Part shown: positions 3,785-17,981 of the stretch, piece after piece
Numbering within the stretch: position 1 is the stretch's first letter
How the letters are laid out: every line of letters begins with the position of its first letter
NCBI GenBank assembly: GCA_022784805.1
Contig: JALFYG010000019.1
Coordinates: 1 to 38,824, forward strand
Direction: 5' to 3'
Length of the DNA stretch: 38,824 bases
DNA from: Spirochaetales bacterium
GTDB taxonomy: Bacteria; Spirochaetota; Spirochaetia; Sphaerochaetales; Sphaerochaetaceae
Notes under the pieces: generated by a model
Seen by the model: the letters and a program-made list of their open reading frames with translations, nothing else
Database searches by the model: none
Told to the model about the DNA's origin: nothing
Program-made: the position numbers and the translations under genes

Positions 3785-4759
3785 CTACTTGTTCACAACG
3801 TTTTGAGGTTTACCCTCGATGAATGTCTTTACGTTGTCTGACGTAACGCTCATTATCCTTTCTCTTGCTTCCTTTGCTCCCCATGACATATGAGGTGTAA
3901 TAATGCAGTTCTTTGCCTTTAATAACGGGTTGTCTCCCTTGATCGGTTCAGTAGAGACAACGTCCAAAGCCGCACCACCTACTTTGCCGCTATTAAGTGC
4001 ATCAGCAAGATCTTGCTCGACGACAAGTTGTCCACGGGAATTATTTACAATAAGTACTCCGTCTTTCATCTGCGCAATGGTATCCTTATTTATCAATCCC
4101 ATTGTGTCAGGAAACAGAGGGCAATGAAGAGCGATTACATCAGACTCTCTATAGAGTTCTTCTCTGGTGACATATTTAAATCCTTCTTCAACAAACTTTG
4201 GGTTTTCAAAGTTGTCGTTGACAATGACATTCATGTTAAGAGCCTTGGCAATTTCTCCCGTTCTATGTCCGATTCTTCCAAATCCGATGATACCAATTGT
4301 CTTGGAAGCCAATTCAATAAGAGGGTAGTCCCAAAAACACCAGTCGATATTATTTTCCCATCTGCCATTATGGACTGCTTCGGAGTGATGCCCAATGTGA
4401 TGGCAAAGTTCAAGAAGCAGAGCAATTGCAAATTGAGAAACACTATCAGTGCCATAAGTAGGAACATTAGAAACCGGAATTCCTTTCTCTTTTGCATAAT
4501 TTACATCAACTACATTGTATCCTGTTGCCAATAGGGCCACGAAACGTATATTAGGACATCTATCGAATACTTCTTTGTTAATTGGAGTTTTATTTGTAAT
4601 TACTATATCTGCATCTCCAATTCTTCGTACTATTTCATCGACATCTCCAACAGGTGTTCTGTCAAAACAGACAAAATCACCGTGAGCTTTAAAACAATCC
4701 CAACTAAGATCGCCAGGGTTTTCTGTATAACCATCTAATACAACTATTTTGTGATTCAT
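3785..4759 (-). CDS. D-isomer-specific 2-hydroxyacid dehydrogenase (glycerate dehydrogenase-like)
   Basis: 324 aa. NAD fold GIIGFGRIGHRTG and catalytic region ITPHMSWG. Overall layout matches the HprA/GhrB-type family. Confidence 0.9.
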   Translation of the reverse strand: MNHKIVVLDGYTENPGDLSWDCFKAHGDFVCFDRTPVGDVDEIVRRIGDADIVITNKTPINKEVFDRCPNIRFVALLATGYNVVDVNYAKEKGIPVSNVPTYGTDSVSQFAIALLLELCHHIGHHSEAVHNGRWENNIDWCFWDYPLIELASKTIGIIGFGRIGHRTGEIAKALNMNVIVNDNFENPKFVEEGFKYVTREELYRESDVIALHCPLFPDTMGLINKDTIAQMKDGVLIVNNSRGQLVVEQDLADALNSGKVGGAALDVVSTEPIKGDNPLLKAKNCIITPHMSWGAKEARERIMSVTSDNVKTFIEGKPQNVVNK

Positions 4760-4810
4760 TAATATTATCCTATATAAAAAGAGGTAAAGGGTTCCTTTAC
4801 CTCTTCCAAA

Positions 4811-5758
4811 TTACTTAAAGAGCTCGTTCTCAATATGCTTCCAAAGATCCATGTAATCTCCTGAATACCTATATTTATCGATATCCAGTCTATCGGCGAT
4901 TTCAATGAATTTGTCTGTGATTCTATTGTTTGCTTCAAATGTTGAAACAACACCTGTTCTTGTAGGGGATGTATCTGAAACAATATATCCTTGATAATCA
5001 AACTTTTTGAGGTAGTAGACAAATTCAAGGTATTCGAGAATGTGTTTTGACCCTGTGAAGTAGTCCCAATCCCACTTTCCATCATTGTCATTCATGTGGA
5101 CATAGTATGGAATATTACAACTGTGTAGGAGGGCAAGCTCTTCAGCTGGATTCTTTCCACCATATAGTACATGTCCGACATCAATCGTTACCCCCAAACC
5201 TTTCTTGCCAATTTGATCGATAAGAAGAACAGTTTTTGCTGCATCGAATAAGAAACAAGTACCTCTTGTTTCTGAAGGTTTAAATTCAATAAAAGTAGTG
5301 ATTTCAGGCTTATAGGAAGCAGCTTCGCTGAAAGCCTCCTTTAAATATTCCCAGCATTTGATGTAATCAGCTTGGAAAGCAAACTCATACCCGTCACCGA
5401 GAGGGCAGACTGTAATCTGGTTGACACCGATTGCTTCTGCAAAATCTTTTCCTTCTTTAATAAAAGAAATAGCCCTATCTCTTACTTCTTTTACAGGAGA
5501 TGTGATACCACCCATTCTAAATTCAGGTTCAGCTTTAATGTTGACATTCACAGCTGAAATAGCCAATCCATATTTATCCATAAGGGCCTTGGTTTCTTCT
5601 GGAGAAGAGACTTCATAAGGATACACACACTCCATTGCGGAAATACCCTTAATTTGCTTTGCCATTGCAAATTTTTCCTCGAGAGTAAGCAATGTGTTGT
5701 ACTCATGGAAACGGTCTTTGGTTTTGCTCAAAAAAGATGAGATTACAGAATACTTCAT
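4811..5758 (-). CDS. Xylose-isomerase-like TIM-barrel sugar isomerase/epimerase
   Basis: 315 aa. IEFKPSETR resembles EPKPxEP of XylA-type enzymes. DVGH and VHMNDNDGKWDWD are metal-site-like motifs. Confidence 0.75.
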   Translation of the reverse strand: MKYSVISSFLSKTKDRFHEYNTLLTLEEKFAMAKQIKGISAMECVYPYEVSSPEETKALMDKYGLAISAVNVNIKAEPEFRMGGITSPVKEVRDRAISFIKEGKDFAEAIGVNQITVCPLGDGYEFAFQADYIKCWEYLKEAFSEAASYKPEITTFIEFKPSETRGTCFLFDAAKTVLLIDQIGKKGLGVTIDVGHVLYGGKNPAEELALLHSCNIPYYVHMNDNDGKWDWDYFTGSKHILEYLEFVYYLKKFDYQGYIVSDTSPTRTGVVSTFEANNRITDKFIEIADRLDIDKYRYSGDYMDLWKHIENELFK

Positions 5759-5777
5759 AAATAACTCCTTTTGTTTT

Positions 5778-6614
5778 TTATTTTAGTAACTCTTCGAGAT
5801 ATTTCTTACCGAACGAGTATTCGCTATCAACTAAGTCTGGGGTTGTCACTATTTCAAGATCAAGGGAACCCTGGTAGCCATTTTCCTTCAAGCCATTGAT
5901 TACGCTTTTCCAAGGTATATTGCCTTTTCCTGGTGCCAATGCAAGATTTTCGAAAGTAAAATTATCTTTTAAATGGGTTCCAAAAACTTTTGAACTAAGT
6001 TTTGAAGGAATTAACTCAATTCTTTCTTTGCTTGCCCAGGCATGACCAGTATCAAAATTAAGGCCTAGATTTTCCTTTCCACTATCACTGATTAATCTCA
6101 ATAACCCATCAGTGTTTTGCAAAATAGAACCAGGAACAATCTCCATCGCAAGACGCATATTACCATCGTCAGCAATTTCACAAAAAGTGGATATTTTCTC
6201 TACAAATCTATCCCAGATCCTTTTGTATTCCCCTGGACCATAGGAATGTCCTTCTGTTTCAAAAGGTCCACCAATCGGCAAAGTTATAGTAGAAGAATCA
6301 AGAATAGAATTTATTTCTACAATTCTCTTCATTTCTTCATAACCATAATCCGAGAAAAGCATGTCCTCTGTCTTTGTTGCATACAGAAGAAAATGCGCTA
6401 CAAACTGAGTTTCTTTCATGCCTAAGTCGTTTGCGGCTTTTTTTAATTCCGGTGCGTCTTTTGTCCATTCAGAAAGCTTTTCTTTTTTATATATCTCTCC
6501 TTGATAGCCATCAAATCCTGATTTCTTCAGTTTGTGTATTGCTTGAATGTAATCACTTACTGTGAAATCTGTGGTAAAAACAGAAAAAACATATGCAGGT
6601 GAAACTCCGAACAT
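5778..6614 (-). CDS. Sugar phosphate isomerase/epimerase (AP-endonuclease-2/xylose-isomerase-like TIM barrel)
   Basis: Track ORF starts at a TTG (6644). Trimmed to ATG 6614, which has SD GAGGA 5 nt upstream. Motifs LAMEIVPGS, NFDTGHAW, THLKDN. Confidence 0.75.
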   Translation of the reverse strand: MFGVSPAYVFSVFTTDFTVSDYIQAIHKLKKSGFDGYQGEIYKKEKLSEWTKDAPELKKAANDLGMKETQFVAHFLLYATKTEDMLFSDYGYEEMKRIVEINSILDSSTITLPIGGPFETEGHSYGPGEYKRIWDRFVEKISTFCEIADDGNMRLAMEIVPGSILQNTDGLLRLISDSGKENLGLNFDTGHAWASKERIELIPSKLSSKVFGTHLKDNFTFENLALAPGKGNIPWKSVINGLKENGYQGSLDLEIVTTPDLVDSEYSFGKKYLEELLK

Positions 6615-6631
6615 TCTTATCCTCATAAAAC

Positions 6632-6647
6632 ATTTTGTATTCAAAAT
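6632..6647. promoter_or_regulatory. Operator site A (15/16 match to ATTTTGTATACAAAAT)
   Basis: ATTTTGTATTCAAAAT. Lies just downstream of the -10 of the minus-strand promoter and 18 nt upstream of ATG 6614. Confidence 0.6.
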
Positions 6648-6656
6648 TATTAATTT

Positions 6657-6721: not shown

Positions 6722-6736
6722 AAATGTATACAAAAT
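6721..6736. promoter_or_regulatory. Operator site B (12/16, right half perfect)
   Basis: TAAATGTATACAAAAT. Starts at the last base of the -10 and so covers the expected transcription start. Confidence 0.5.
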
Positions 6737-6753
6737 TTTATTGGAGGTTTTAT

Positions 6754-7581
6754 ATGAAACGAAAAATAATCATTGCTGTTGCACCTGTCGCCCATATGGA
6801 GAAGAGAGTTCCAGAAGGGGTGATTAATCCTGTTGACCCAGATTCTTTGGCAGAAGAAGTCGTAAAATGTGCAGAAAACGGAGCCTCCCTCGTACATCTC
6901 CATGTAAGGGACAACAAAGGGCATATCGTAGGTAATCTTGATACATTTTCATATACTATCAATAAAATTAGGGAAAAAAGTGATATAATCATTCAAGGTT
7001 CGACTGGAGGTGTATCGGATCTTTCTCTTGATGCTCGGTCTGTTTCTGTTGAGCATCCTCTTGTCCAAATGGCGTCATTAAATATGGGCACTACAAATTT
7101 TGGAGAGTCTATTTATGTTAATAGTTATCCAGATATCAGATATTGGGCTAATAAAATGAAAAAGTATGATGTGGTTCCTGAATTAGAAATTTTTGATACA
7201 TCAATGATTGATACATGTTTGATGATGAGAGAAGAAGGAGTCCTTTCAGATCCTCTTCATTTTAATTTTTCTCTTGGATTTAAAGGATGTATGGCAGCTA
7301 CGGCAGATAATCTTTATATTCTTAAATCAAAACTCCCGCTTGGAGCAAAGTGGTCGATTCTTCATGAGGGAATGAATGATTTGAGCCTATTGGCTGCTGC
7401 AATATCTTTTGGTGCTACAGGTATTCGAGTAGGGTATGAAGATGGCTTCTATTTAGGTGAAAATCGAACAGCAAGCAACAGTGAACTTGTTGCAGCTGCT
7501 GCAGAATTAGTAAAAATGATGGGGTGTGAAGTGGCTACAATAGATGAGGCATATAATATACTTGAAATGCACCGAAAATAA
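6754..7581 (+). CDS. Beta-keto acid cleavage enzyme family protein (BKACE, DUF849; 3-keto-5-aminohexanoate cleavage-like)
   Basis: Trimmed to ATG 6754 (SD GGAGG 6743-6747). Motifs KIIIAVAPV, LVHLHVRD (His-x-His metal site), IIQGSTGG, IRVGYEDG. Confidence 0.85.
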   Translation: MKRKIIIAVAPVAHMEKRVPEGVINPVDPDSLAEEVVKCAENGASLVHLHVRDNKGHIVGNLDTFSYTINKIREKSDIIIQGSTGGVSDLSLDARSVSVEHPLVQMASLNMGTTNFGESIYVNSYPDIRYWANKMKKYDVVPELEIFDTSMIDTCLMMREEGVLSDPLHFNFSLGFKGCMAATADNLYILKSKLPLGAKWSILHEGMNDLSLLAAAISFGATGIRVGYEDGFYLGENRTASNSELVAAAAELVKMMGCEVATIDEAYNILEMHRK

Positions 7582-7656: not shown

Positions 7657-8319
7657 ATGGAAGATAGCAACGCGGTTTATCAGGACCTATCTACAAAGGT
7701 ATATAACAGTCTTAAATCAATGATATTGTCTGGTGAATTGGAACAAGGGCAAAAATTGAAGCAAGAACAGTTGGCAGAACAGCTTGGTGTTTCTCGTACT
7801 CCTTTGTTGCAAGCCACCAGCAGACTTGCAAAAGATAAATTAGTTGATTTAATTCCTAGACGGGGAGCATATGTTCGTGTAGTTAGTTCAAAGGAAATGA
7901 TTGATGCCTTTGATATTCGTTCTTCTCTTGAACCACTTGGTGCTGAACTAGCTTCAAAATACATATCCGAAGAAAACATTCACACATTAGAGTCTATCCT
8001 TGATGAACAGGAAAATAAAATTAAAGGTGGACAAATTCGAGAGTCATTTGAGGAAGATTGCAAGTTCCATATTTTACTGATGAAAAGCAGTGGTAATAAT
8101 TATCTTTACGACTATCTGAAAAACATTATTAATATGCAGCTTTCTACTGAGAGATATTTAAAAACTCCTGAAGAAAGTGTTTTGGAACATAGACTAATAC
8201 TGCAAGCAATAAAAAACCATGAAGCATATTCTTCTAGAAGTAAGATGGCTATGCACATGGATCATGGAGCAAAAGAACAGTTGGAGGAAATCCTTTCTAA
8301 TAAGGAGGTTAAAAAATAA
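7657..8319 (+). CDS. GntR-family transcriptional regulator (FadR/FCD subfamily), copy 1
   Basis: 220 aa. N-terminal winged HTH (LKQEQLAEQLGVSRTPLLQATSRLAKDKLV) and an all-helical C-terminal FCD-like domain. Confidence 0.9.
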   Translation: MEDSNAVYQDLSTKVYNSLKSMILSGELEQGQKLKQEQLAEQLGVSRTPLLQATSRLAKDKLVDLIPRRGAYVRVVSSKEMIDAFDIRSSLEPLGAELASKYISEENIHTLESILDEQENKIKGGQIRESFEEDCKFHILLMKSSGNNYLYDYLKNIINMQLSTERYLKTPEESVLEHRLILQAIKNHEAYSSRSKMAMHMDHGAKEQLEEILSNKEVKK

Positions 8320-8966
8320 TGGAACCTGTTGAGAATGTGGCTCTTAAAGAATATCTGTATAAAGCAATAAAAGATATGGTTGATAGAGGAGAATTAAAAA
8401 TAGGTGAGAAAATCTCCAAACCTGATCTGGCCAAAAAATTCAATGTTAGTCAAACTCCTGTCAATGATGTTTTAAATCGTCTGGTGGGTGAAGGATATAT
8501 CGCGATGGAGTCCAGAAAAGGATTCTTTGTCAAAGAAGTGACAGACGAAGATCTTTGCCAAGCATTTGAGATGCGTGCAGGAATTGAAATGATTGCAGTT
8601 AGATTATGTTGTGAAAAGGCAACAGACGATGAAATAAATGAGCTTTCTTCTCTGTTCAATGATTTTTCCCTTCCTCTTGATGACGAAGCTTACAAACGTT
8701 ATATACAAGTAGACAATGAATTTCATCAGAAAATAATTCAGTATTCGGGTAATGTTTTTTTGGCTCAGTCGCTGACATATAGTGGGTTTCTTGTCAGATC
8801 CAACAGAAAAGGTCTGGTAAGACCCCCTGAAGAAACTCTTGAAGAGCATCGAGCAATATCAGATGCTTTGAAAAAAAGAGAGGGAGAAAAAGCTTCTTCC
8901 TGTATGATGAGGCATCTTTTGGCTTCACGTGAATTAATTCGTGAAGCCATGAAAAAGAATCAATAG
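8319..8966 (+). CDS. GntR-family transcriptional regulator (FadR/FCD subfamily), copy 2
   Basis: 215 aa. HTH KPDLAKKFNVSQTPVNDVLNRLVGEGYI and a helical C-terminal domain. TAATG overlap with copy 1, SD AAGGAGG 8302-8308. Confidence 0.9.
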   Translation: MEPVENVALKEYLYKAIKDMVDRGELKIGEKISKPDLAKKFNVSQTPVNDVLNRLVGEGYIAMESRKGFFVKEVTDEDLCQAFEMRAGIEMIAVRLCCEKATDDEINELSSLFNDFSLPLDDEAYKRYIQVDNEFHQKIIQYSGNVFLAQSLTYSGFLVRSNRKGLVRPPEETLEEHRAISDALKKREGEKASSCMMRHLLASRELIREAMKKNQ

Positions 8967-8974: not shown

Positions 8975-9520
8975 TTAATCTTCTTCAAATACTGTTATTC
9001 TTTCCACCTCTTTATCAGTGAACTGATCAAGAGCATCTCTGACGCATGTAGAGAAGCTTATGACAACACCTCCTTTCTCTCCACCACTTATCCAGTGTTT
9101 TTTTCCTGATGGAATAATAACTTGTTTTCCTGGTGTCAAAACATGGAAAGATCTGGTTGAATATTGGTCCCTTTTTTCTTCAGGAAGTGCAGATAATGGA
9201 CAATTGTCTTCCCCTTCTTCTCCATAATGGCATTCTCCAAATAATCCCCTTAGTATTTCTTCTTTTCCCGGGTCGTTGCCGACAGGTGGGTGCCAATGCT
9301 CAGGCAAGAATTGTCCTGGGAAAAGGACAATAAGTTTTGCGCTTATTCTTTCTGTTGCGAATAATGTCAGAATTTGCGCACCTTCTCTTTCAGGATTATT
9401 TAACCCAAAATCAGCGATGGCTGTTGTTTTTAATTCATCTTCGGAGAGAGGGAATCCTGTCATTCGAAGTATTTCATTAGCTCGTTCTCTGAGCTCTCGT
9501 TCTTTTGACCTTTTTATCAT
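8975..9520 (-). CDS. D-lyxose/D-mannose ketol-isomerase-like cupin
   Basis: Track ORF 8975-9613 trimmed to ATG 9520 (SD AAAGGAGG). Cupin motifs LPEHWHPP...GKEE and KKHWISGGEKG. Length 181 aa. Confidence 0.7.
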   Translation of the reverse strand: MIKRSKERELRERANEILRMTGFPLSEDELKTTAIADFGLNNPEREGAQILTLFATERISAKLIVLFPGQFLPEHWHPPVGNDPGKEEILRGLFGECHYGEEGEDNCPLSALPEEKRDQYSTRSFHVLTPGKQVIIPSGKKHWISGGEKGGVVISFSTCVRDALDQFTDKEVERITVFEED

Positions 9521-9571
9521 GTTTCCTCCTTTTTCTAGTATATAAAGATTCTTGAAATAGGCAAATAAAAA

Positions 9572-9587
9572 ATTATGTATACAAAAT
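9572..9587. promoter_or_regulatory. Operator site C (15/16)
   Basis: ATTATGTATACAAAAT in the divergent cupin/transketolase intergenic region. It overlaps a minus-strand promoter: -35 TTGTCA (9599-9594), 16-nt spacer, -10 CATAAT (9577-9572). Confidence 0.6.
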
Positions 9588-9678
9588 TTTTGATGACAAG
9601 TCTCAAAACGCATGCTAAATTGACGTTGGACAAGCAGAAGGTTCTGCGTATTTGATTTTTATTCAAAAGGAGAATGGA

Positions 9679-10521
9679 ATGAACGTTTCTGATCAGAAAC
9701 AACAGAAGATCAACTTCTTGAAAGAAAAGGCAAAAGAGGTAAGGAAAACAGTTCTTACCATGATTCATGAAGCACAATCTGGCCATCCGGGCGGATCCCT
9801 TTCCGCTACAGATATAGTAACAGCGCTTTATTTTTCAGAAATGAATGTAGATCCATCTAATCCGAAAAATCCGGATAGAGATAGATTCATACTTTCAAAA
9901 GGACATGCATGTCCTGTGCAATATGCAAATCTGGCATTGAAGGGCTTTTTCCCTATGGAAACAATCTATACCCTTAGAAAAGAGGGTTCAATCCTTCAAG
10001 GTCATCCAGATATGAAAAGATGTCCAGGAATTGATATAAGTACTGGTTCTCTAGGACAGGGACTTTCATGTGGTGTAGGTATGGCAATTGCAGGAAAAAG
10101 AGACAAAAAAAACTATAGGGTATTTGTTGTTGTTGGAGACGGAGAAGTAGATGAAGGTCAAATCTGGGAAGCTGTTGAGTCTGCCGCAAAGTACAAATTA
10201 GATAATTTGGTTATTTTTGTTGATAGAAATCGTCTTCAGAATGATAACACAACAGAAATTGTCATGCCTTCGCTAGATTTGGTTGAGAAGTTCAAGTCTT
10301 TTGGATGTGAAACATTTCATATTGATGGGCATGATATGGAACAAATTGTAGATGTTTTAGATGAGATTAGGAAATCAGATAAAGGTAAACCATTTGCTGT
10401 CGTGGCTGAGACTGTAAAGGGAAAAGGTGTTTCATTTATGGAAAATGTTGTGAAATGGCATGGTCAGGCTCCCAACGATGAACAATTCTTACAAGCTATG
10501 AAAGAAGTGGAGGAAATGTGA
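9679..10521 (+). CDS. Transketolase, N-terminal (TPP-binding) subunit
   Basis: Trimmed to ATG 9679 (SD AAAGGAGA). Motifs SGHPGGSLS and GDGEVDEGQIWEA. Confidence 0.92.
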   Translation: MNVSDQKQQKINFLKEKAKEVRKTVLTMIHEAQSGHPGGSLSATDIVTALYFSEMNVDPSNPKNPDRDRFILSKGHACPVQYANLALKGFFPMETIYTLRKEGSILQGHPDMKRCPGIDISTGSLGQGLSCGVGMAIAGKRDKKNYRVFVVVGDGEVDEGQIWEAVESAAKYKLDNLVIFVDRNRLQNDNTTEIVMPSLDLVEKFKSFGCETFHIDGHDMEQIVDVLDEIRKSDKGKPFAVVAETVKGKGVSFMENVVKWHGQAPNDEQFLQAMKEVEEM

Positions 10522-11590: not shown

Positions 11591-12598
11591 ATGAAAAAGC
11601 TTTGTATCCTTGCTTTAGTGTGTTTAATTGCAATCACTGGAGCTTTCGCTCAGGGAAGTGGTGAAGTTTACCCTTCTAGAGACATTACTAACGTTATGGT
11701 TTGGGGGGCAGGTGGAGGAACAGACCTTGCAAACCGTCTCGTTATGGCAGAAATGGGCAAAATACTTAATGTCAACATCAACGTTAATAACGTAACAGGT
11801 GGTGTTGGTGGATCCATCGGTCTATTTGAAGCATATGGAAGAGAAGCAGACGGTTATACACTTGTTGGTGTTTCAGAATCCTGTGTAACTTCTTCAGTGC
11901 AAGGTGGCTTTGATAAGAGAATGAACGTTTGGGATTTCTTTATTATTGGAGGTTCTCCAGACGTACTATCTGTAACTCCAAATGCTCCTTTCAACACAAT
12001 TGTAGAATTAGTTGAATATTGTAAAGCTCATCCAGGCGAAGTAAGAATCGGAGGCTCCGCAGCAGGATCAATTCATCATTTGAACGTATTAGGTTTCTGT
12101 AATGGAGCTGGAATAGAGATGAACTTCATTCCTTATGATTCATCAGCTGGAAGCCAGAATGCTGCAATGACAGGTGAAGTTACATGTGTTATCACTTCCG
12201 TACAGGAGCAGGCAGAATTGCTTAAAGCAGGAAAGCTTAGACCACTTGGCATGATGACACCAAATGAATTTGAATTCGAGGGAAAGACTATTCCATCTGC
12301 TTTCGATTTTTATCCAGCACTTGCAGATTACCTTCCACTTGAACAGCAGATTGGTTTTGCAATTAGAAAAGATGCTCCAGAAAGTGTAAAAGCAACACTT
12401 CAGGATGCTTTTACAAAAGCAATGGCAACAGAAGCAGTCCAGAACTATGGCAGAGACAGATATTTCACACTTAAGGGCCTTTACGGAGAAGAAGCAAATA
12501 AGATTTTTGACAATCTTGAAGCTACATTCTGCTGGACTCTTTGGGATCTTGGCGCAGCAAAGATCGAACCATCAAAGTTTGGAATTGAACGTCCGTAA
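11591..12598 (+). CDS. tctC: Tripartite tricarboxylate transporter, periplasmic substrate-binding subunit (TctC/Bug family)
   Basis: 335 aa with signal peptide MKKLCILALVCLIAITGAFAQG. Motifs GGVGGSIG and IPYDSSAGSQNAAMTGEV. Followed by tctB and tctA. Confidence 0.85.
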   Translation: MKKLCILALVCLIAITGAFAQGSGEVYPSRDITNVMVWGAGGGTDLANRLVMAEMGKILNVNINVNNVTGGVGGSIGLFEAYGREADGYTLVGVSESCVTSSVQGGFDKRMNVWDFFIIGGSPDVLSVTPNAPFNTIVELVEYCKAHPGEVRIGGSAAGSIHHLNVLGFCNGAGIEMNFIPYDSSAGSQNAAMTGEVTCVITSVQEQAELLKAGKLRPLGMMTPNEFEFEGKTIPSAFDFYPALADYLPLEQQIGFAIRKDAPESVKATLQDAFTKAMATEAVQNYGRDRYFTLKGLYGEEANKIFDNLEATFCWTLWDLGAAKIEPSKFGIERP

Positions 12599-12658: not shown

Positions 12659-13414
12659 ATGATTGACAAAGAAAAATTGAGAGGATCCGACTTGGTATCA
12701 GGAGGGATATTTCTGGTAGTTGGCATAGTTATTATAGCTATGGCTCTTCAGATGCCACTGTCTGATTCTTTTGGAGGTGTTCAAAGTCAATGGTATGTCT
12801 CTCCAGCATTGTTACCATTGGTTATAGGTGCTTGTCTCATCATTCTTAGTATTTGTATCATTGTATATGCTCTAAAGAATGGTGGTGTGGAGCAATTTAA
12901 AAAAAGTTTGGCGGAAAAAAAGGGAAAGTCCATTGTTACAGACAAAAATCTGAGAATGGCTGCTGTAATACTTCCCCTTTGTACTTTAGTGTATGTACAT
13001 TTGAAGGCTTTTGATTTTTATTTGACAATCACAATATATCTTTTGTTCTCAACAAGTGTTTTTTACTTTGAAGATATGGAATTCTTAAAAAAGTCCCTGA
13101 AACTATATTTAGTTCAGTTTGTGGTTATGGTTATTCTTGTTGCAACAGGACTAAGCAAAACATTGAATAAGCTTTTCTTTGCTACAATGGATATTGTTGG
13201 CTTCATAATTCTAATTTCACTAACTGTAAATGTGGTTCTGTTCGCAAAGAGATCAGATGATGTTATAAAGAAGAAGAGACGAATCGTTCTATTGATTTCT
13301 TTTCTAGTTCCTTTGTTGGTTATTCCTCTTTTCAGGTATGCATTAAGAGTACCTATGCCAAAAGAAGGCGTAATCATCAATGTGATGTCCCAGATTTATT
13401 ATTCGCTAAGATAG
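12659..13414 (+). CDS. tctB: Tripartite tricarboxylate transporter small membrane subunit (TctB-like)
   Basis: 251-aa polytopic membrane ORF between tctC and tctA. SD AAGAGG 6 nt upstream. Confidence 0.7.
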   Translation: MIDKEKLRGSDLVSGGIFLVVGIVIIAMALQMPLSDSFGGVQSQWYVSPALLPLVIGACLIILSICIIVYALKNGGVEQFKKSLAEKKGKSIVTDKNLRMAAVILPLCTLVYVHLKAFDFYLTITIYLLFSTSVFYFEDMEFLKKSLKLYLVQFVVMVILVATGLSKTLNKLFFATMDIVGFIILISLTVNVVLFAKRSDDVIKKKRRIVLLISFLVPLLVIPLFRYALRVPMPKEGVIINVMSQIYYSLR

Positions 13415-13427: not shown

Positions 13428-14945
13428 ATGAACATTATACAGAGTTTCACTTACTTTTTCTCATCTTTGGGTCAGGTAATCACAGATCCTGTCTCCATTC
13501 TGCTTCTTTTTGGAAGTGTTATGATGGGAATTATCTTTGGTGCATTGCCTGGACTAACAGCAACTTTAGGTGTTGCGCTTCTTACGACACTGACATATGG
13601 AATGCAGCTTTCACATGCACTTGTTTCTTTAATGGGAATATATGTTGGAGCAGTCTATGGTGGTTCCTATGGATCAATCATGATTAATATCCCGGGAACT
13701 GCAAGTGCTGCCGCAACTGCTCTTGAAGGATATCCATTATCTAAAAGAGGTCTAGCAGGAAAAGCATTAGGTCTGACTACAACTGCTAGCGCCATTGGAA
13801 CAGTAGTAGGAATGTTCTTTGTTGTCATATTTACCCCACTGATAACAAAGCTTTCACTTCAGTTCACTTCTTTTGAATTCTTCTTGCTTGCCTTCTTTGG
13901 GATAATGATAAGTGGATCTATCTCCTGCCCGGATACTCCTCAAAAAGGCTGGCTTTGTGGATTCTTTGGTTTGTTCCTGGCGATGATTGGACGAGATCAG
14001 CTGCAGACTTATCCAAGATTCACATTTGGAATTACTTCATTGGAAAGTGGACTGGAGACAGTTCCTGTCCTCATTGGAGCATTTGGTATTCCTCAGATCA
14101 TCCAGGTGCTTAGTGATAATAGGGCAATGCCTAAACAGAATAAGATAGATAGAGTTCTTCCTTCCTGGAAAGCTATAGGAAGAAATATTAAGCACATTGT
14201 AAGAAGTGCCCTTATTGGCGTTGGTATTGGAGCTGTCCCTGGTATTGGTGAAGATATCGCAGCTTGGGTTTCATATGGAACAGCAAAAAAGACAAGTAAA
14301 CATCCAGAAGAGTTTGGAAATGGATCAGAAGAAGGTATTATCGCTTCAGAGACGGCAAATAATTCTTGTATCGGCGGGGCTATGATACCTCTGTTATCTA
14401 TGGGAATCCCAGGAAGTCCACCAGCTGCAATGCTTTTGGGTGCTTTGTTACTTCATGGTATTGCTCCGGGACCAATGCTTGAAGTAGAACGACCAGGCTT
14501 TACATTGACTGTGTCTGCAATATTGCTTCTTGCTTCAATCTCAATGTGGATTATTGGTATTTTGCTTGCCAAACAAGTATCAAAAATTCTGAAGGTACCA
14601 TCACAACTATTGATGCCTATTGTCGGAGTTCTCTGCATTATTGGTTCGTATGCTCTTGGACTCAAAGCAATTAATTTGTATCTTATGGTACCAATGGGAA
14701 TAATTACATATTTGATTACAGAACGTGGATATCCAATACCTCCTCTAGTAATCGGTGTAATTCTTGGAAACATGGCTGATGCAAACTTAAGAAGAGGTCT
14801 TATGGTTTCAAAAGGAAGTCTTCTTCCATTTATTCAGAGACCAGTGTGCCTTATTCTTGTAATCATAATTATATTCACTTTCCTTAGTGGTACTTCTTTC
14901 TTCAAAAACTTCTTAAGTAAGTTGAAGGGAAAGATTATAAAATAA
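13428..14945 (+). CDS. tctA: Tripartite tricarboxylate transporter large permease (TctA)
   Basis: 505 aa with about 12 TM segments. Motifs GALPGLTATLGVALL and GIPGSPPAAMLLGAL. Confidence 0.9.
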   Translation: MNIIQSFTYFFSSLGQVITDPVSILLLFGSVMMGIIFGALPGLTATLGVALLTTLTYGMQLSHALVSLMGIYVGAVYGGSYGSIMINIPGTASAAATALEGYPLSKRGLAGKALGLTTTASAIGTVVGMFFVVIFTPLITKLSLQFTSFEFFLLAFFGIMISGSISCPDTPQKGWLCGFFGLFLAMIGRDQLQTYPRFTFGITSLESGLETVPVLIGAFGIPQIIQVLSDNRAMPKQNKIDRVLPSWKAIGRNIKHIVRSALIGVGIGAVPGIGEDIAAWVSYGTAKKTSKHPEEFGNGSEEGIIASETANNSCIGGAMIPLLSMGIPGSPPAAMLLGALLLHGIAPGPMLEVERPGFTLTVSAILLLASISMWIIGILLAKQVSKILKVPSQLLMPIVGVLCIIGSYALGLKAINLYLMVPMGIITYLITERGYPIPPLVIGVILGNMADANLRRGLMVSKGSLLPFIQRPVCLILVIIIIFTFLSGTSFFKNFLSKLKGKIIK

Positions 14946-14993: not shown

Positions 14994-16562
14994 ATGAATT
15001 TAGAGAAGTCTTCAATTGGAATAGAATTTGGTTCAACCAGAATAAAAGCAGTTTTAGTAGATGAAAACTATATTTTTAGAGCATCAGGAAGCTATAAATG
15101 GGAGAACTCCAAAGAAGGAGATATTTGGACATATTCTCTTGAAGAGGCTATTATTGGGTTACAATCCTGCTTTGCTTTAATGAAGTCTGATTATGAAAAA
15201 AAATATAATCAAAAACTTACAGTAGTCGGATCTATTGGCATATCGGGTATGATGCATGGATATCTGGTGTTTGATAAAAATGACTCACAAATTTGCGAGT
15301 ACAGAACTTGGAGAAATACGATAACTCAAAAAGCATCAGAAGAGTTATCTGATTTATTCGATTTTAATGTACCCCAAAGATGGTCAATTTCTCACTTGTA
15401 TCATGCAATACTCAATAATGAAAATCATGTGAAAGACATAGAATGGATGACTACATTATCTGGATTCGTTCATTTTGTATTAACCGGACAAAAAATAATT
15501 GGTGTTGGCGATGCTTCTGGAATGTTTCCTATTGATGAACAGAAAGCAGATTATGATGAAATAATGATTCAACGTTTTGATTCTTTGGTAAAAGGAAAAC
15601 TATCGAAAGGAATCTATGATATTCTCCCTAGAATACTAAAAGCTGGTGAAATAGCCGGTTATCTTACAAAAGAAGGATCTCGTATTTTAGATGTTAGTGG
15701 AGAACTCATGCCCGGTATACCATTCTGTCCATGTGAAGGAGACGCAGAAACAGGTATGGTTGCTACTAATTCTATTGGTATAGGTACAGGTAATATCTCT
15801 GCGGGGACTTCTATTTTTGCGATGATTGTTACAGGCAGAAGAGGTACAAGACATAGAGAAATAGATATTGTTACAACTCCAACTGGTGAATGTGTATCAA
15901 TGATACATTGTAACAATGGAACGTCTGATCTAGATGGATGGATTGAGATGTTTGGAGACTTTTTAAAAAGATATAATGGTGATGTGGATCATAACAAAAT
16001 ATATGAAATACTCTTTAAAAGTGCATTGGAGGGGAGTTCCGATTGCAATGGAATGATTAATATAAATTATGTGGCAGGGGAAGAAATTACAAAATTCAAT
16101 GAAGGTTCCCCCATTTTTACTCGTCTTTTTGGATCTGAATTCTCCTTCGCAGATTTATCCCGAACGCTAATTTCTTCGATATATGCAACACTTTCTATTG
16201 GTTTAAGAATTTTGCAAGATGATGGTATATCTTTTTCGAGGATTACTGGACATGGAGGTCTTTTCAAAACTGGAAATGCCGCCCAGATAATTCTAAGTGC
16301 TGCTCTCGGCGTTCCCGTGTCAACAATGAATACAGCAGGAGAGGGTGGATCGTATGGTATAGCAATTCTCGCAAAGTACATGATAGAAAAGACAAAGAAT
16401 GAATCTTTAGAAAGTTATTTGTCTGACAAAGTATATGCAGAATCAGAAATTAAAACAGTATTTCCAAAAGAAGAAGATATCAGGGGATACAAAATATTTC
16501 TTGATAGATATTCGTCTTTTGTCCATTCAATATCCTTCGCTAATAAAGCTAGAGAGGTATAA
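14994..16562 (+). CDS. FGGY-family carbohydrate kinase (xylulokinase-like)
   Basis: 522 aa. N-terminal phosphate-1 motif IGIEFGSTRIKAVLVD. Length and two-domain layout fit the FGGY family. Confidence 0.8.
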   Translation: MNLEKSSIGIEFGSTRIKAVLVDENYIFRASGSYKWENSKEGDIWTYSLEEAIIGLQSCFALMKSDYEKKYNQKLTVVGSIGISGMMHGYLVFDKNDSQICEYRTWRNTITQKASEELSDLFDFNVPQRWSISHLYHAILNNENHVKDIEWMTTLSGFVHFVLTGQKIIGVGDASGMFPIDEQKADYDEIMIQRFDSLVKGKLSKGIYDILPRILKAGEIAGYLTKEGSRILDVSGELMPGIPFCPCEGDAETGMVATNSIGIGTGNISAGTSIFAMIVTGRRGTRHREIDIVTTPTGECVSMIHCNNGTSDLDGWIEMFGDFLKRYNGDVDHNKIYEILFKSALEGSSDCNGMININYVAGEEITKFNEGSPIFTRLFGSEFSFADLSRTLISSIYATLSIGLRILQDDGISFSRITGHGGLFKTGNAAQIILSAALGVPVSTMNTAGEGGSYGIAILAKYMIEKTKNESLESYLSDKVYAESEIKTVFPKEEDIRGYKIFLDRYSSFVHSISFANKAREV

Positions 16563-16565
16563 GAA

Positions 16566-17981
16566 ATGAAAATCAATGAAGTCCTAAATAAATACAATGT
16601 ATATGATAAGAAGATAGTTAAAGAAATATATACAGAAGAAATTCAGAAAGCAAACTTTAAAATAATCGTGTTGGATGATGACCCTACAGGAGTCCAAACT
16701 GTTCATGATGTATATGTATATACAAAGTGGGATTACGAAACTATTTTAGAAGCATTTAATGATGAAAAGAGAGTGTCTTTTATTCTAACAAATAGTAGGG
16801 GGTTGACACGAGATGAAACGGTTGCCCTTCATAGAGAAGTTGCTGAATCAATCAATAAAGCTTCTGTTGTCACAGGAAAAGACTATTTGGTAATGAGTCG
16901 AAGTGATTCTACTCTGCGAGGTCATTATCCATTAGAAACAGAAGTGTTGGAAACAACTTTATCCGGGATATTTGACGGAGAGATAGTTATGCCCTTTTTT
17001 TTAGAGGGTGGAAGATACACTGTCAATGACATGCATTATGTACTTCAAAAGGAAGAATTAATACCTGCAGGAGAAACAGAATTTGCAAAAGATAAAACTT
17101 TTGGTTATAAGAATTCAGATTTGAAAAAATGGATTGAGGAAAGGACTGAAGGAAGAGTAAAAAAAGACGATGTATTATCCATTTCCTTGGAATCATTAAG
17201 AAATCTAGATATAAATGGTATAACAAATACCATCGAGTCTGTAAAAGATTTTAATAAAATTGTTGTCAATGCGTTATCTTATGAAGATGTAATGGTTTTC
17301 TCTTCTTGTTTGATGAAAGCAATCAGAAATGGGAAAAGATTTATCTGTCGATGTGCTGCCTCTTTGGTAAGAGTATTAGGAGGTGTCACCGAAATCCCTT
17401 TGCTTACAAATAAGGATGTCATATCTGAAGAGCAATTATTAGGAGGTTTGGTAATAGCAGGCTCTCATGTGAAGAAGACAACGAAACAGCTTAACTCTCT
17501 GTTGGAATTGGAAAACACAGTTGGAATAGAGCTAAATCAACATTTGGTTGTGAATCCTATTGCTTTTGAAGAAGAAAGAATTAGAGTAATTCATGTTGCT
17601 CGAGAAATAATCACTTCTGGAAAGACTGCAGTTGTATATACAAAAAGAGAACGTTTTGATTTAAATACTGGAAATAAAGAAGATGAATTATTGCTGGCTA
17701 AGAAAATATCAGATGCCGTTACTTCTGTTGTATCTGATATAGGCATCTGTCCAAGTTTCATTATTGCAAAGGGCGGAATAACGTCTAGTGAAATTGGAAC
17801 TAAAGCATTAAGATGCAGGAAAGCGCTTGTTTTAGGCCAAATAAAGAAAGGAATACCTGTTTGGAAAACGGGAGAGGAGTCATTATACCCAGGAATAAGT
17901 TATATAATATTTCCTGGGAATGTCGGTGATGATGATACATTAAAGGACATTGTCAAGGAACTTGCTCTTAAGTGTAAGTAA
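16566..17981 (+). CDS. Four-carbon acid-sugar kinase family protein (DUF1537; OtnK/DtnK/OiaK family)
   Basis: 471 aa. N-terminal VLDDDPTGVQTV and TNSRGL. C-terminal nucleotide-binding part AKGGITSSEI and FPGNVGDDD. Confidence 0.85.
   Translation: MKINEVLNKYNVYDKKIVKEIYTEEIQKANFKIIVLDDDPTGVQTVHDVYVYTKWDYETILEAFNDEKRVSFILTNSRGLTRDETVALHREVAESINKASVVTGKDYLVMSRSDSTLRGHYPLETEVLETTLSGIFDGEIVMPFFLEGGRYTVNDMHYVLQKEELIPAGETEFAKDKTFGYKNSDLKKWIEERTEGRVKKDDVLSISLESLRNLDINGITNTIESVKDFNKIVVNALSYEDVMVFSSCLMKAIRNGKRFICRCAASLVRVLGGVTEIPLLTNKDVISEEQLLGGLVIAGSHVKKTTKQLNSLLELENTVGIELNQHLVVNPIAFEEERIRVIHVAREIITSGKTAVVYTKRERFDLNTGNKEDELLLAKKISDAVTSVVSDIGICPSFIIAKGGITSSEIGTKALRCRKALVLGQIKKGIPVWKTGEESLYPGISYIIFPGNVGDDDTLKDIVKELALKCK

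Follow-up and report, generated by a model that had tools for sequence, protein, structure and literature searches.

A conserved gene cluster under shared regulation, probably for import and breakdown of a sugar acid, combines a BKACE-family enzyme with a split transketolase

The E. coli yiaK-S and ula routes degrade 2,3-diketo-L-gulonate and L-ascorbate: reduction or oxidation of a keto-acid gives 3-keto-L-gulonate, an FGGY kinase and a decarboxylation then lead to a pentulose or its phosphate, and an AP_endonuc_2 TIM barrel epimerizes the product before it enters the pentose-phosphate pathway. In the 3-oxo-tetronate route for L-threonate and D-erythronate (LtnD/DenD, OtnI, OtnK and OtnC; ygbJKLM in E. 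coli), a 3-oxo acid is first phosphorylated by a DUF1537 kinase and then decarboxylated; the route extends to C6 acids, which OtnI, OtnK and OtnC can convert to pentulose-5-phosphates, and an L-threonate 3-dehydrogenase yields 3-oxo acids directly (PMC12994016). Cleavage of 2-deoxy-3-keto-ribonate, in the oxidative deoxyribonate pathway, genetically requires a BKACE, and growth on deoxyribonate also requires a short-chain dehydrogenase, a thiolase and a glycerate kinase (Price et al., bioRxiv 10.1101/205583). Split transketolases act in the D-apiose pathway (ApsI, AplK and AptAB; MetaCyc PWY-8089) and in the sulfo-transketolase pathway (SqvD, SqwGH, SqwI and SqwF), where SqwGH makes two cuts, separated by an isomerase step, in an anionic sugar that is not phosphorylated (PMC9594981). 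The original prediction for the locus described here set it against known DUF1537 and transketolase routes, a list to which have to be added the BKACE precedent of the deoxyribonate route (bioRxiv 10.1101/205583) and the 2-oxo-tetronate kinase/decarboxylase and L-threonate 3-dehydrogenase routes (PMC12994016).

The locus spans positions 3785-17981 of the window, the whole 38.8-kb stretch of Spirochaetales DNA that was analyzed. All 14 of its named ORFs were confirmed at their coordinates and in their named families, the D-lyxose-isomerase-like cupin included (Table 1), so that the predicted gene content stood. None of the cluster's proteins reached an NCBIfam equivalog cut-off and no paper in the literature searched mentioned both DUF1537 and BKACE, in agreement with the view that the locus is uncharacterized. 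The predicted absence of OtnC, PdxA2 and RuBisCO-like proteins was also borne out: no Aldolase_II (OtnC), PdxA, RuBisCO_large, thiolase or CoA-transferase was found among the ORFs scanned across the window, a scan that left out a 585-aa ORF at 22497-24254 and most ORFs shorter than 100 aa.

Table 1. Genes and regulatory features of the sugar-acid cluster.
Feature	Coordinates	Strand	Match or position
D-2-hydroxyacid dehydrogenase, last gene of leftward operon	3785..4759	-	Pfam 2-Hacid_dh + 2-Hacid_dh_C (192 bits)
TIM1, xylose-isomerase-like TIM-barrel enzyme	4811..5758	-	Pfam AP_endonuc_2
TIM2, second TIM-barrel enzyme, distantly like ketose 3-epimerases	5778..6644	-	Pfam AP_endonuc_2
Operator-like palindrome TTTTGTATTCAAAA	6633..6646	.	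Start of TIM2 operon
Operator-like site ATGTATACAAAATTT, core TGTATACA	6724..6738	.	16 bp upstream of BKACE start
BKACE/DUF849-family enzyme, first gene of BKACE-GntR-GntR operon	6754..7581	+	Pfam BKACE 230 bits
GntR/FCD regulator 1	7657..8319	+	Pfam GntR + FCD
GntR/FCD regulator 2	8319..8966	+	Pfam GntR + FCD
Cupin, D-lyxose/D-mannose isomerase family	8975..9613	-	Solved D-lyxose isomerases 2Y0O + 7NZO, E ~3e-29
Operator-like palindrome TTATGTATACAAAATTT	9573..9589	.	Between cupin and transketolase genes
Transketolase N-terminal (ThDP-binding) subunit	9652..10521	+	Pfam Transketolase_N 186 bits
Transketolase C-terminal (Pyr + C) subunit	10518..11462	+	Pfam Transket_pyr + Transketolase_C
Perfect operator palindrome TTTTGTATACAAAA	11552..11568	.	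~30 bp upstream of tctC
TctC, solute-binding protein of TTT importer	11591..12598	+	Pfam TctC
TctB small membrane subunit, unusually long (251 aa)	12659..13414	+	Pfam TctB
TctA large membrane subunit	13428..14945	+	Pfam TctA 441 bits
FGGY-family sugar kinase, accessory, pentulose-kinase-like	14994..16562	+	Pfam FGGY_N + FGGY_C
DUF1537-family kinase, accessory	16566..17981	+	Pfam SBD_N 165 bits + NBD_C 105 bits
Hairpin + T-rich tail, likely terminator of TctCBA-FGGY-DUF1537 transcript	18025..18065	+	Read from sequence

The logic of the cluster would be that of the yiaK-S/ula routes and of the animal glucuronate-xylulose pathway, except that the window yielded neither an OMP-decarboxylase-type 3-keto-gulonate-6-phosphate decarboxylase nor a 4-epimerase of the class II aldolase fold; decarboxylation would have to come from the BKACE. 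As in the 3-oxo-tetronate route, there are a carboxylate importer, a 2-dehydrogenase, a member of the TIM-barrel isomerase family and a DUF1537-family kinase, and the cluster would pass through a beta-keto acid that loses C1. However, the dehydrogenase is of the D-2-hydroxyacid rather than the 3-hydroxyisobutyrate type, import is by a TTT system in place of GntP, BLASTP shows no similarity of the kinase to E. coli OtnK (YgbK), and the TIM barrels have no significant similarity to OtnI/YgbM. The DUF1537 kinase is optional in the cluster's relatives, a class II aldolase-fold decarboxylase is missing, and BKACE, cupin, transketolase and FGGY genes are added. With the deoxyribonate pathway (bioRxiv 10.1101/205583) the cluster would share a BKACE-family enzyme as the C-C-cleaving step of an acid-sugar route and the downstream need for a kinase acting on a small hydroxy-acid; it has no short-chain dehydrogenase and no nearby thiolase, whereas deoxyribonate clusters lack the transketolase, cupin, TIM barrels and TTT importer, and the presence of a 2-hydroxyacid dehydrogenase points to a 2-hydroxy rather than a 2-deoxy substrate.

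The predicted likeness to the D-apiose route, in which split transketolase, FGGY kinase and sugar isomerase also occur together, holds at the level of families and no closer, since the two subunits of the transketolase share 40% and 33% identity with AptA and AptB of E. coli SE15 and the FGGY kinase is related to AplK by family only, with no BLASTP similarity. Apiose clusters, moreover, use an ABC transporter for a neutral sugar and lack BKACE, DUF1537 and 2-hydroxyacid dehydrogenase. A dedicated split transketolase, aldose/ketose isomerases, a terminal reductase and possible action on an anionic, non-phosphorylated sugar recall the sulfo-transketolase pathway, and some relatives of the cluster carry a transaldolase like the sulfo-TAL variants; the isomerases belong to other families, though, and BKACE and the kinases have no counterpart there (PMC9594981).

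An operator-like palindrome, TTTTG[T/C]AT[A/G]CAAAA, was detected in the promoter regions of the cluster's transcription units: ahead of the TIM2 operon, of BKACE and of tctC, and in the stretch that separates cupin from transketolase genes. In 24 related loci it matched 47 times, against 1.8 expected from shuffles, and 45 of these matches fall between -40 and +250 bp relative to a cluster gene's start. Its positions are the same in related loci of other phyla; that of the tctC site recurs in L001, L016, L020, L024, L039, L044, L053, L054, L086 and L087. The pair of GntR regulators is kept in the core loci, and tctA is followed by a 48-nt gap, lacking a T-tract terminator, and then by the FGGY and DUF1537 genes. 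Because a GntR-type operator is conserved at its units, the locus reads as one co-regulated unit, a single regulon under this predicted operator, as had been proposed.

In two metagenome contigs the genes from BKACE through DUF1537 occur in identical order at 70-97% protein identity, and the core recurs in Spirochaetota-type and other contigs, its gene set being kept across phyla while order and orientation are rearranged. The conserved order, the recurrence of the core and the shared operator together show that the genes are not associated by chance. The core consists of TctCBA, the two TIM barrels, the cupin, BKACE, the two GntR regulators, the split transketolase and the 2-hydroxyacid dehydrogenase, and the genome-neighborhood analysis suggested by the original prediction thus finds it in other genomes of several phyla. 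That the locus holds no single pathway but unrelated systems side by side, for example a TTT transporter and kinases next to a pentose/transketolase module, is very improbable. Four transcription units on two strands would suit such an arrangement, as would kinases that are dispensable in relatives and less conserved with respect to locus L001 (70-72% protein identity, against 85-97% for the rest). However, the units share an operator, in this locus as in distant relatives, the core survives changes of order and orientation, and DNA identity to L001 falls off smoothly, without an abrupt drop at the kinase module.

All seven close core loci, defined by a BKACE of 60% identity or more and by flanks of 3 kb or more on each side, contain genes for the transketolase, the 2-hydroxyacid dehydrogenase, the two TIM barrels, the cupin and the two GntR regulators, whereas a DUF1537 kinase is found in two and an FGGY kinase in none. 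An aldo-keto reductase, missing from this window, is constant in the closest cross-phylum versions. The idea of a DUF1537-type pathway was therefore not upheld, as the kinases are usually missing from the closest cross-phylum loci, in which TctCBA and the other core enzymes are constant. The DUF1537 kinase belongs to a long (~470-480 aa), uncharacterized subfamily: it scores 44 bits against the DtnK model (cut-off 450) and matches no solved structure below 1e-3. Core loci L020, L024 and L060 carry relatives of it (46-50% identity) as insertions. For the FGGY kinase, the top NCBIfam match is XylB, at 96 bits far under the 380-bit cut-off; relatives at 51-54% identity adjoin AraD-like Aldolase_II and AraA genes, and by these sequence comparisons the nearest ones look like pentulose kinases. 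Profile searches thus placed both kinases in their Pfam families, and orthology to OtnK, DtnK, OiaK or AplK was rejected. The importer's TctC matches solved TTT binding proteins (E down to 4e-27), and the long TctB recurs as homologs of 251-253 aa in L001 and L013.

No kinase is encoded within ~10 kb on either side of the spirochaete-type core loci, so the transketolase there would need either a kinase encoded elsewhere or a non-phosphorylated substrate. The second option would suit a carboxylate version of the sulfo-transketolase and sulfo-transaldolase pathways, in which the imported compound is a uronic or keto-uronic acid and its carboxylate provides the anionic handle. A keto-uronate would be formed by the cupin or TIM isomerases, the split transketolase (with a transaldolase in some relatives) would cleave it without prior phosphorylation and pass C2 or C3 units to glyceraldehyde-3-phosphate, and the remaining C4 or C3 aldehyde-acid would be isomerized to 3-oxo-tetronate or hydroxypyruvate, which BKACE and DUF1537 would process to the end or the 2-hydroxyacid dehydrogenase would reduce. 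SqwGH offers a precedent, four of the seven close core loci have a TAL_FSA gene, and on a Roseibium plasmid relatives of TIM1 adjoin genes for an aldose 1-epimerase and a TRAP carboxylate transporter, suggesting a cyclic sugar with a carboxylate; the aldo-keto reductase and the glyoxylate-reductase-like dehydrogenase would suit disposal of aldehyde-acid products. We nevertheless consider this scheme improbable: it is argued from analogy, we know of no transketolase acting on uronates, the one here is no nearer to characterized special-purpose transketolases than is usual within the family, neither SqvD, SqvB, SqwI nor a sulfoquinovosidase was seen in the window, and the pentulokinase-like FGGY enzyme would have no clear purpose.

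Among the core enzymes, the D-2-hydroxyacid dehydrogenase falls under every NCBIfam cut-off and has 5TX7 as its top solved match, followed by glyoxylate reductases and glycerate dehydrogenases. TIM1 matches the solved structure 3KTC (E=8e-34) and, weakly, xylose isomerases, making it a candidate 2-oxo/3-oxo or aldose/ketose isomerase; relatives at 63-67% identity occur in every close core locus. TIM2, which adjoins TIM1 in all core loci, weakly matches D-psicose/D-tagatose 3-epimerase, IolO, IolE and L-ribulose-5-P 3-epimerase. The cupin, whose true start is probably near 9520 (181 aa, as called in L001), lies under the Pfam threshold (Lyx_isomer, E=0.019) and is ~35% identical to proteins named 'D-lyxose/D-mannose family sugar isomerase' by NCBI, such homologs being present on plasmids. 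It adjoins BKACE in at least ten loci of different phyla (L009, L010, L015, L035, L036, L041, L048, L053, L060 and L077).

The BKACE, with its true start probably at 6754 rather than 6724 (275 aa, as called for relatives), matches the solved structure 2Y7D (E=3e-40) and scores 239 bits against the Kce model (cut-off 382). What we take to be the zinc ligands (H46, H48 and E230) and catalytic residues (E143, R226 and D231) of Kce are all kept, whereas two further positions, presumably T106 and Y145 in Kce, are changed to Ser and Phe. The change from Tyr145 to Phe no more than hints at altered chemistry; Clostridial BKACEs encoded beside thiolase genes have Phe at this position too. Canonical BKACEs require a C2 methylene and acetyl-CoA and form acetoacetate and an acyl-CoA, not a ketose; to our knowledge, decarboxylase activity has never been demonstrated in the family. 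In 10 of 22 more distant loci BKACE and DUF1537 genes are adjacent or near, with two different DUF1537 subfamilies, and this adjacency in many unrelated gene contexts backs the predicted functional link between them.

The residues kept would suit canonical chemistry of the kind known from the oxidative deoxyribonate pathway, with a 2-deoxy-3-keto sugar acid as substrate: a beta-keto acid and acetyl-CoA would give acetoacetate and a hydroxyacyl-CoA (e.g. glyceryl-CoA or glycolyl-CoA), and DUF1537 would act as a glycerate-type kinase on the freed hydroxy-acid. The 2-deoxy keto-acid would be supplied by transketolase, cupin and TIM barrels; transketolase could, for instance, split 2-deoxy-5-keto-hexonate, and an aldose-to-ketose isomerization would then give 4-hydroxy-3-oxobutanoate. 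The cupin next to BKACE suits a beta-keto acid made from an alpha-hydroxy-aldehyde acid, the dehydrogenase resembles glyoxylate/hydroxypyruvate reductases, and a Clostridial operon (TIM, BKACE, thiolase, DUF1537, SDR and RpiB) has the deoxyribonate make-up with DUF1537 in the glycerate kinase's place. However, that Clostridial BKACE is only 25-27% identical to the one studied here and therefore belongs to another subfamily, and thiolase, the CoA-linked partner that was looked for, was found in none of ~60 neighborhoods of this BKACE clade. Moreover, it is hard to see what the dehydrogenase would do with a 2-deoxy acid, the scheme leaves the pentulokinase-like FGGY unexplained, and Phe replaces Tyr145, so that canonical chemistry seems a doubtful explanation.

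The best model, which we put forward tentatively, runs from a sugar acid through a 3-oxo acid and a BKACE-dependent loss of C1 or C-C cleavage to a ketose for the transketolase; the gene families are established, and from them we infer the order of steps and every substrate. In this GntR-controlled catabolic regulon, a sugar acid or keto-acid would enter by the TTT importer and be oxidized at C2 by the D-2-hydroxyacid dehydrogenase. In the subgroup of L037, L044, L086 and L087, in which that enzyme was not detected, a short-chain dehydrogenase is present in the cluster and may take its role, paralleling L-threonate 3-dehydrogenase (PMC12994016). TIM1 would isomerize the product to a 3-oxo (beta-keto) acid, whose carboxyl end the BKACE zinc enzyme would remove or cleave off, by canonical acetyl-CoA-dependent cleavage or a decarboxylation-type variant, in the chemical slot that OtnC, PdxA2 or RuBisCO-like proteins occupy in published DUF1537 routes. 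The ketose so formed, in the simplest case a pentulose derived from a C6 acid, would be tailored by the epimerase-like TIM2 and the cupin isomerase, phosphorylated in this lineage by the FGGY enzyme, and fed by the dedicated transketolase into the pentose-phosphate pathway; the window lacks L-ribulose-5-phosphate 4-epimerase, which a pentulose scheme by way of L-sugars would require. The DUF1537 kinase, as a lineage-specific add-on, would phosphorylate a terminal hydroxyl, either of the 3-oxo acid before the BKACE step or of a small hydroxy-acid produced after it. The data do not point to the C4/C5, possibly branched, substrate of the original prediction; the pentulose-kinase-like FGGY relatives fit conversion of a C6 acid to a C5 ketose at least as well.

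In any case, the 14-gene cluster is real and under shared regulation, and it probably serves the import and breakdown of a sugar acid. It recurs in several bacterial phyla and matches no characterized pathway, and C-C cleavage in it is most likely the work of an enzyme family that had no earlier link to these kinases or to transketolase.

The gene content named in the original prediction was recovered in full by ORF listing and Pfam scans, with a leftward operon spanning 6644 down to 3785 and the remaining genes arranged as listed in the table. The Pfam families TctC, TctB and TctA were found on adjacent genes, which identifies the TTT importer, and TctC matches solved TTT binding proteins. 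On the evidence of two Pfam domains lying in order and covering the protein (SBD_N, 165 bits, residues 33-270; NBD_C, 105 bits, residues 295-459), the product of 16566-17981 belongs to the DUF1537 acid-sugar kinase family, and the BKACE matched PF05853 with 230.6 bits against a cut-off of 24.8 bits. The cupin gave nothing above the Pfam threshold, with PF07385, which we take to be built on the E. coli type, falling below it. The earlier description of this protein as D-lyxose-isomerase-like was nevertheless right, since its sequence finds the D-lyxose isomerase structures 2Y0O and 7NZO at E about 3e-29 and is ~35% identical to proteins named by NCBI as D-lyxose/D-mannose family sugar isomerases; by sequence it is a member of that cupin family, substrate specificity aside. 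The folds of the proteins are already fixed by sequence matches to solved structures, and no specific ligand clue came from the solved relatives of TctC or of the 2-hydroxyacid dehydrogenase.

Positions of the genes and operator-like sites of the locus and of the adjoining defence genes
Feature	Position (nt)	Arrangement
D-2-hydroxyacid dehydrogenase	3785-4759	leftward operon, after TIM1
TIM1, xylose-isomerase-like TIM barrel	4811-5758	leftward operon
TIM2, xylose-isomerase-like TIM barrel	5778-6644	leftward operon
Imperfect operator copy, fourth at the locus	6633-6646	start of TIM2 operon
Operator-like site	6724-6738	16 bp 5' of BKACE start
BKACE	6754-7581 (longer ORF from 6724)	rightward operon, diverging from TIM2 operon
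GntR/FCD regulators, two	7657-8319 and 8319-8966	rightward, 3' of BKACE
Cupin, D-lyxose-isomerase-like	8975-9613	lone leftward gene
Operator-like site	9573-9589	between cupin and transketolase genes
Split transketolase	9652-10521 and 10518-11462	diverges from cupin gene
Operator-like site	11552-11568	about 30 bp 5' of tctC
TctC, TctB, TctA	11591-14945	consecutive genes 3' of transketolase
FGGY kinase	14994-16562	after TctA
DUF1537 kinase	16566-17981	after FGGY
Type I restriction enzyme R subunit	18162-21155	
Type I S subunit	21152-22525	
585-aa ORF	22497-24254	presumed M subunit
McrBC-type pair	24594-27811	

The recurrence of this gene set was examined in related loci. Two metagenome contigs carry the DUF1537 kinase's closest relatives (70% identity), and on both the window gene order is kept: BKACE, two GntR, cupin, transketolase, TctCBA, FGGY and DUF1537. 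The core persists in more distant loci. Those whose BKACE is 62-65% identical, several of them source-named Spirochaetes, Spirochaetales or Sphaerochaeta, retain TctCBA, an aldo-keto reductase, the cupin, both TIM barrels, the BKACE, both GntR regulators, the split transketolase and the 2-hydroxyacid dehydrogenase; a transaldolase/FSA-family gene is frequent among them, and no kinase was found within about 10 kb on either side. A further 80 loci were fetched with a BKACE profile, and all loci were scored by tblastn with the window proteins and extra references. Where the BKACE is at least 60% identical and the flanks reach at least 3 kb on both sides, the transketolase, 2-hydroxyacid dehydrogenase, aldo-keto reductase, both GntR regulators, cupin, TIM1 and TIM2 were present in all seven loci, DUF1537 in two (L020 and L024, with the gene inserted between cupin and TIM1) and FGGY in none (0/7). 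At 37-59% identity, with the same flank requirement, DUF1537 lay near the BKACE in 10 of 22 loci. The aldo-keto reductase is missing from the window and from the two loci closest to it; all three have FGGY and DUF1537 in the slot after tctA instead. These counts call for a change in how the original prediction framed the cluster: the core consists of BKACE, cupin, TIM barrels and transketolase, and the kinases are accessories. A scan of species-representative genomes returned four loci only, none above 50% identity, and for the BKACE clade at least 418 relatives were confirmed in a metagenome scan.

The kinase genes also differ from the core in their divergence. Between window 6754-17981 and positions 207-11410 of the closest related locus, L001, protein identity is 96-97% for TctC and TctA, about 90% for the transketolase, 85-86% for BKACE and cupin and 70-72% for FGGY and DUF1537. 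DNA identity declines smoothly, from ~80% to ~70%, and shows no break across the kinases; a recombination origin of the kinase module was therefore rejected, the uneven protein identities reflect different constraint, and no claim of horizontal replacement is made within this lineage. FGGY and DUF1537 thus appear, from these comparisons, to be under weaker constraint.

The proposal that the locus is one co-regulated unit is supported by a shared putative operator, TTTTGTATACAAAA, in promoter regions here and in related loci. The intergenic regions share a palindrome with the core TGTATACA, of which the window has four copies where 0.5 would be expected, three of the four sitting in promoter regions of the locus. 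In 24 related loci (351 kb), a set that includes near-duplicates yet spans contigs of clearly different lineages, TTTTGTATACAAAA with at most two mismatches gave 47 matches, compared to 1.8 in shuffled sequence, and 45 of them lay from -40 to +250 bp of a cluster-gene start (tctC, transketolase N subunit, BKACE, TIM2, first GntR gene or cupin). Two GntR+FCD genes, together with TTTTGTATACAAAA and close variants in promoter regions, place the cluster among GntR/FadR-type regulons. That a single motif recurs at equivalent places in the promoters gives good support to one regulon, governed by the GntR proteins of the cluster itself, with TTTTGTATACAAAA as the predicted operator. The two kinase genes are probably read through from the tctC promoter, because no operator was found 5' of FGGY, the 48-nt tctA-FGGY gap holds a hairpin without a T-tract, and a hairpin with a T-rich tail follows DUF1537. 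A near-perfect copy of the operator core, TTTTGTATACATCA, at 21652-21665 within the gene for the type I specificity subunit probably arose by chance.

That these genes merely belong to unrelated systems lying side by side is, given the common operator and the conserved gene set, very improbable. We regard it as established that the cluster is conserved, co-regulated and catabolic, with a TTT importer at its start, a beta-keto-acid enzyme within it and, at its end, ketose-handling enzymes and a transketolase. As it starts with such an importer, its substrate is presumably a carboxylate.

The surroundings of the locus hold other systems. Upstream lie a chloramphenicol acetyltransferase-family gene (264-911; Pfam CAT, 149 bits) and, adjoining it, an amino-acid ABC transporter (1101-3556). 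A defence island (18162-27811) follows directly downstream, and a second sugar-related locus at 29455-36514 encodes a Cof-type HAD phosphatase, a DeoR regulator, an ABC transporter (ATPase, fused permease and binding protein) and a 6-phosphogluconate dehydrogenase.

The cluster was then compared with known pathways. Published DUF1537 pathways cluster with OtnC (Aldolase_II), PdxA2 or a RuBisCO-like protein, whereas, as originally predicted, no OtnC-type class II aldolase, PdxA or RuBisCO-like protein was found in the locus or elsewhere among the scanned window ORFs, a set that excludes the 585-aa ORF at 22497-24254; neither a thiolase nor a CoA-transferase was found in the same set. None of the ten enzymes scanned, nor TctC, reached an NCBIfam equivalog cut-off. 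The likeness to the D-apiose transketolase route that had been suggested did not hold up beyond family level. The FGGY kinase gave no significant BLASTP alignment with AplK, to which it is related at family level only, and the two transketolase subunits share 40% and 33% identity with AptA and AptB, respectively, from the apiose cluster of E. coli SE15, values that we regard as ordinary among split transketolases; the joint presence of AplK and AptAB orthologues that marks a D-apiose pathway is thus not seen in the window cluster, and orthology to that route was rejected. Orthology to E. coli ygbJKLM was likewise rejected, as the DUF1537 kinase shows no significant BLASTP similarity to YgbK and neither TIM barrel shows significant similarity to OtnI/YgbM. 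Among characterised pathways we found none with this set of genes, which agrees with the original view of an uncharacterised route.

The remaining enzymes allow partial readings. The best solved match of TIM1 is the uncharacterised 3KTC, and TIM2 bears a distant likeness to ketose 3-epimerases and to IolO/IolE. On a Roseibium aggregatum plasmid (L097, 5421-11863), a TIM1 relative (39% identical) is accompanied by a GntR regulator, a TRAP transporter, an aldose 1-epimerase and a second TIM barrel unrelated to TIM2, company which hints that the TIM1 family may act on a cyclic sugar with a carboxylate. The nearest relatives of the FGGY kinase (51-54%) adjoin an Aldolase_II gene, with araA nearby in one case; as this is the layout of a ribulokinase and its 4-epimerase, the FGGY kinase is best read as a putative pentulose kinase. 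The 2-hydroxyacid dehydrogenase resembles glyoxylate/hydroxypyruvate reductases and phosphoglycerate dehydrogenases.

Judged by its sequence matches, the DUF1537 kinase does not appear to be one of the characterised kinases OtnK, DtnK or OiaK. The DtnK (D-threonate kinase) model was the sole characterised-kinase model matched, at 43.8 bits against a cut-off of 450; the OtnK and OiaK NCBIfam models gave no match at E<0.01, and no solved-structure sequence fell below 1e-3. The kinase belongs to a long subfamily with at least 8000 relatives at E<=1e-20, widespread in gut and soil Firmicutes, whose listed members carry generic names or that of 'hydroxyacid dehydrogenase', which looks wrong. One member, 54% identical, occurs in Bacillus massiliigorillae (L003, 8099-13826) with a GntR regulator, a 3-hydroxyisobutyrate-dehydrogenase-family enzyme, a GntP permease and a class II fructose-bisphosphate-type aldolase, a further uncharacterised DUF1537 context without OtnC or PdxA2.

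The BKACE aligns with Kce (2Y7D; E=3e-40), its score with the Kce equivalog model being 238.8 bits, below the cut-off of 382. Canonical BKACEs convert a beta-keto acid and acetyl-CoA into acetoacetate and an acyl-CoA. In an alignment with 2Y7D that allows for a 6-residue tag offset, H46, H48 and E230, which we take to be zinc ligands, and E143, R226, D231 and S82, presumably catalytic or binding residues, are all kept, and are invariant in 30 clade members. Two positions differ: Thr106 of Kce is Ser, and Tyr145 is Phe (F147 in 275-aa numbering), the latter invariant across the 30 members. In canonical BKACEs this Tyr is reported to contact the CoA sulfur, and BsfD, a DUF849 enzyme with Phe at that position, has non-canonical chemistry (bioRxiv 10.64898/2026.01.15.699783). 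Phe is also found in uncharacterised Clostridial BKACEs adjoining thiolase genes, so that the substitution, considered as proof of non-canonical chemistry, was downgraded to a hint. The motif after the first strand is AVAPV in the window BKACE and AAITG in the Clostridial ones.

These Clostridial enzymes bear on a different explanation of the cluster. Kinases of the window's subfamily that are ~55% identical occur in an operon of TIM, BKACE, thiolase, DUF1537, SDR and RpiB on Clostridia-type contigs and in the Anaerocolumna sedimenticola genome (L005, 6612-12352; L006, 6970-12727; L007, 7023-12732; RpiB seen in L006 and L007), adjoined by a LacI regulator and a PCC-domain gene. A PCC (PF03479) gene and a LacI-family regulator also flank a spirochaete-type core locus (L014, 16289-17825). 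The operon's BKACE, only 25-27% identical to that of the window, scores 386 bits with the 3,5-dioxohexanoate acetone-transferase model (cut-off 430). The operon resembles the genetically defined deoxyribonate pathway, with DUF1537 in place of glycerate kinase. That pathway is the sole carbohydrate-related precedent found in BKACE papers since 2015; there, genetic evidence shows that 2-deoxy-3-keto-ribonate cleavage needs a BKACE (bioRxiv 10.1101/205583). By analogy, the window BKACE could cleave a 2-deoxy-3-keto acid in the canonical, acetyl-CoA-dependent way, DUF1537 serving as a kinase of the glycerate type, as the make-up of the operon and the conserved catalytic residues would suggest; we consider this unlikely, however, as no thiolase genes were found near this BKACE clade and a 2-hydroxyacid dehydrogenase is present.

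The linkage of BKACE and DUF1537 extends beyond the spirochaete-type loci. In six metagenome loci (L067, L073, L074, L078, L082 and L084), four genes lie together: BKACE (~50% identical to the window's; L078, 8318-14085), DUF1537, an MFS transporter and an Asp/Glu-racemase-like gene; a DcuA/B-type C4-dicarboxylate transporter adjoins them in L078. Their DUF1537 proteins mostly belong to another, shorter (~407-aa) subfamily, 32-37% identical to the window's. Recurrence of the linkage across subfamilies of both proteins argues for their functional coupling, and the four-gene set may be the minimal BKACE-DUF1537 system and the easiest to study. No report coupling DUF1537 with BKACE was found in a literature search that did not include the primary DUF1537 and apiose pathway papers. 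Other small combinations occur among the more distant BKACE relatives: Planctomycetota-type contigs (L015, L035, L036 and L041) hold a module of TIM, MFS transporter, cupin and BKACE, and L009 combines cupin and BKACE with an FGGY kinase, an aldo-keto reductase and a GntR regulator.

Published work offers chemical parallels. In the 3-oxo-tetronate route, a DUF1537 kinase phosphorylates the 3-oxo acid and decarboxylation follows; enzymes of this route can turn C6 acids into pentulose-5-phosphates, and a short-chain 3-dehydrogenase can stand in for the pair of 2-dehydrogenase and isomerase (PMC12994016). We tentatively favor a scheme in which an acid is taken up, converted to a 3-oxo acid, acted on by the BKACE to yield a ketose and passed to transketolase. 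After uptake by TTT, the 2-hydroxyacid dehydrogenase would oxidize C2, TIM1 would isomerize the 2-oxo to the 3-oxo acid, the BKACE would remove or cleave the carboxyl end, TIM2 and the cupin would tailor the ketose, the FGGY kinase would, in this lineage, phosphorylate it, and transketolase would give entry to the pentose-phosphate pathway. DUF1537 would have an accessory part, phosphorylating either the 3-oxo acid or a small hydroxy-acid formed as product. A weak guess is that a C6 acid (gulonate, idonate, keto-gulonate or glucuronate type) is converted to a pentulose, a conversion in which every part would find a use.

The core loci without kinases, the transaldolase genes and the precedent of SqwGH (PMC9594981) would also be consistent with a pathway that parallels the sulfo-transketolase/transaldolase routes but handles carboxylates, its transketolase acting on keto-uronates that carry no phosphate. 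The sulfo-transketolase pathway markers SqvD (FucI-like), SqwI (RpiB family) and sulfoquinovosidase were absent from the Pfam families of the scanned window ORFs, and we hold this alternative to be rather improbable. A further proposal is possible, if doubtful: that the Phe145/AVAPV BKACE clade supplies the missing step of C-C breakage or decarboxylation of 3-oxo sugar acids, taking the place of OtnC, PdxA2 and RuBisCO-like proteins without being homologous to them, partnered by the cupin isomerase and, in kinase-less core clusters, by a transketolase accepting carboxylate rather than phosphate sugars.

The cluster is one among many uncharacterised catabolic clusters and overturns no established biochemistry; it is plausibly a new version of a sugar-acid catabolic pathway, with two enzymes that may have new functions. 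With a conserved operator and compact minimal clusters at hand, the question lends itself to direct testing. Clusters of the Phe145/AVAPV clade were seen in Spirochaetota, Planctomycetota, Deltaproteobacteria and Clostridia-type contigs, and the proposed role of this clade, if true, would represent an unrecognised way, widespread among anaerobes, of feeding sugar acids into the pentose-phosphate pathway. It would add a sugar-acid catabolic route joining a TTT importer to transketolase, would supply a function for the long DUF1537 subfamily, and would give a large uncharacterised BKACE clade a role in carbohydrate pathways, perhaps with a new type of reaction.
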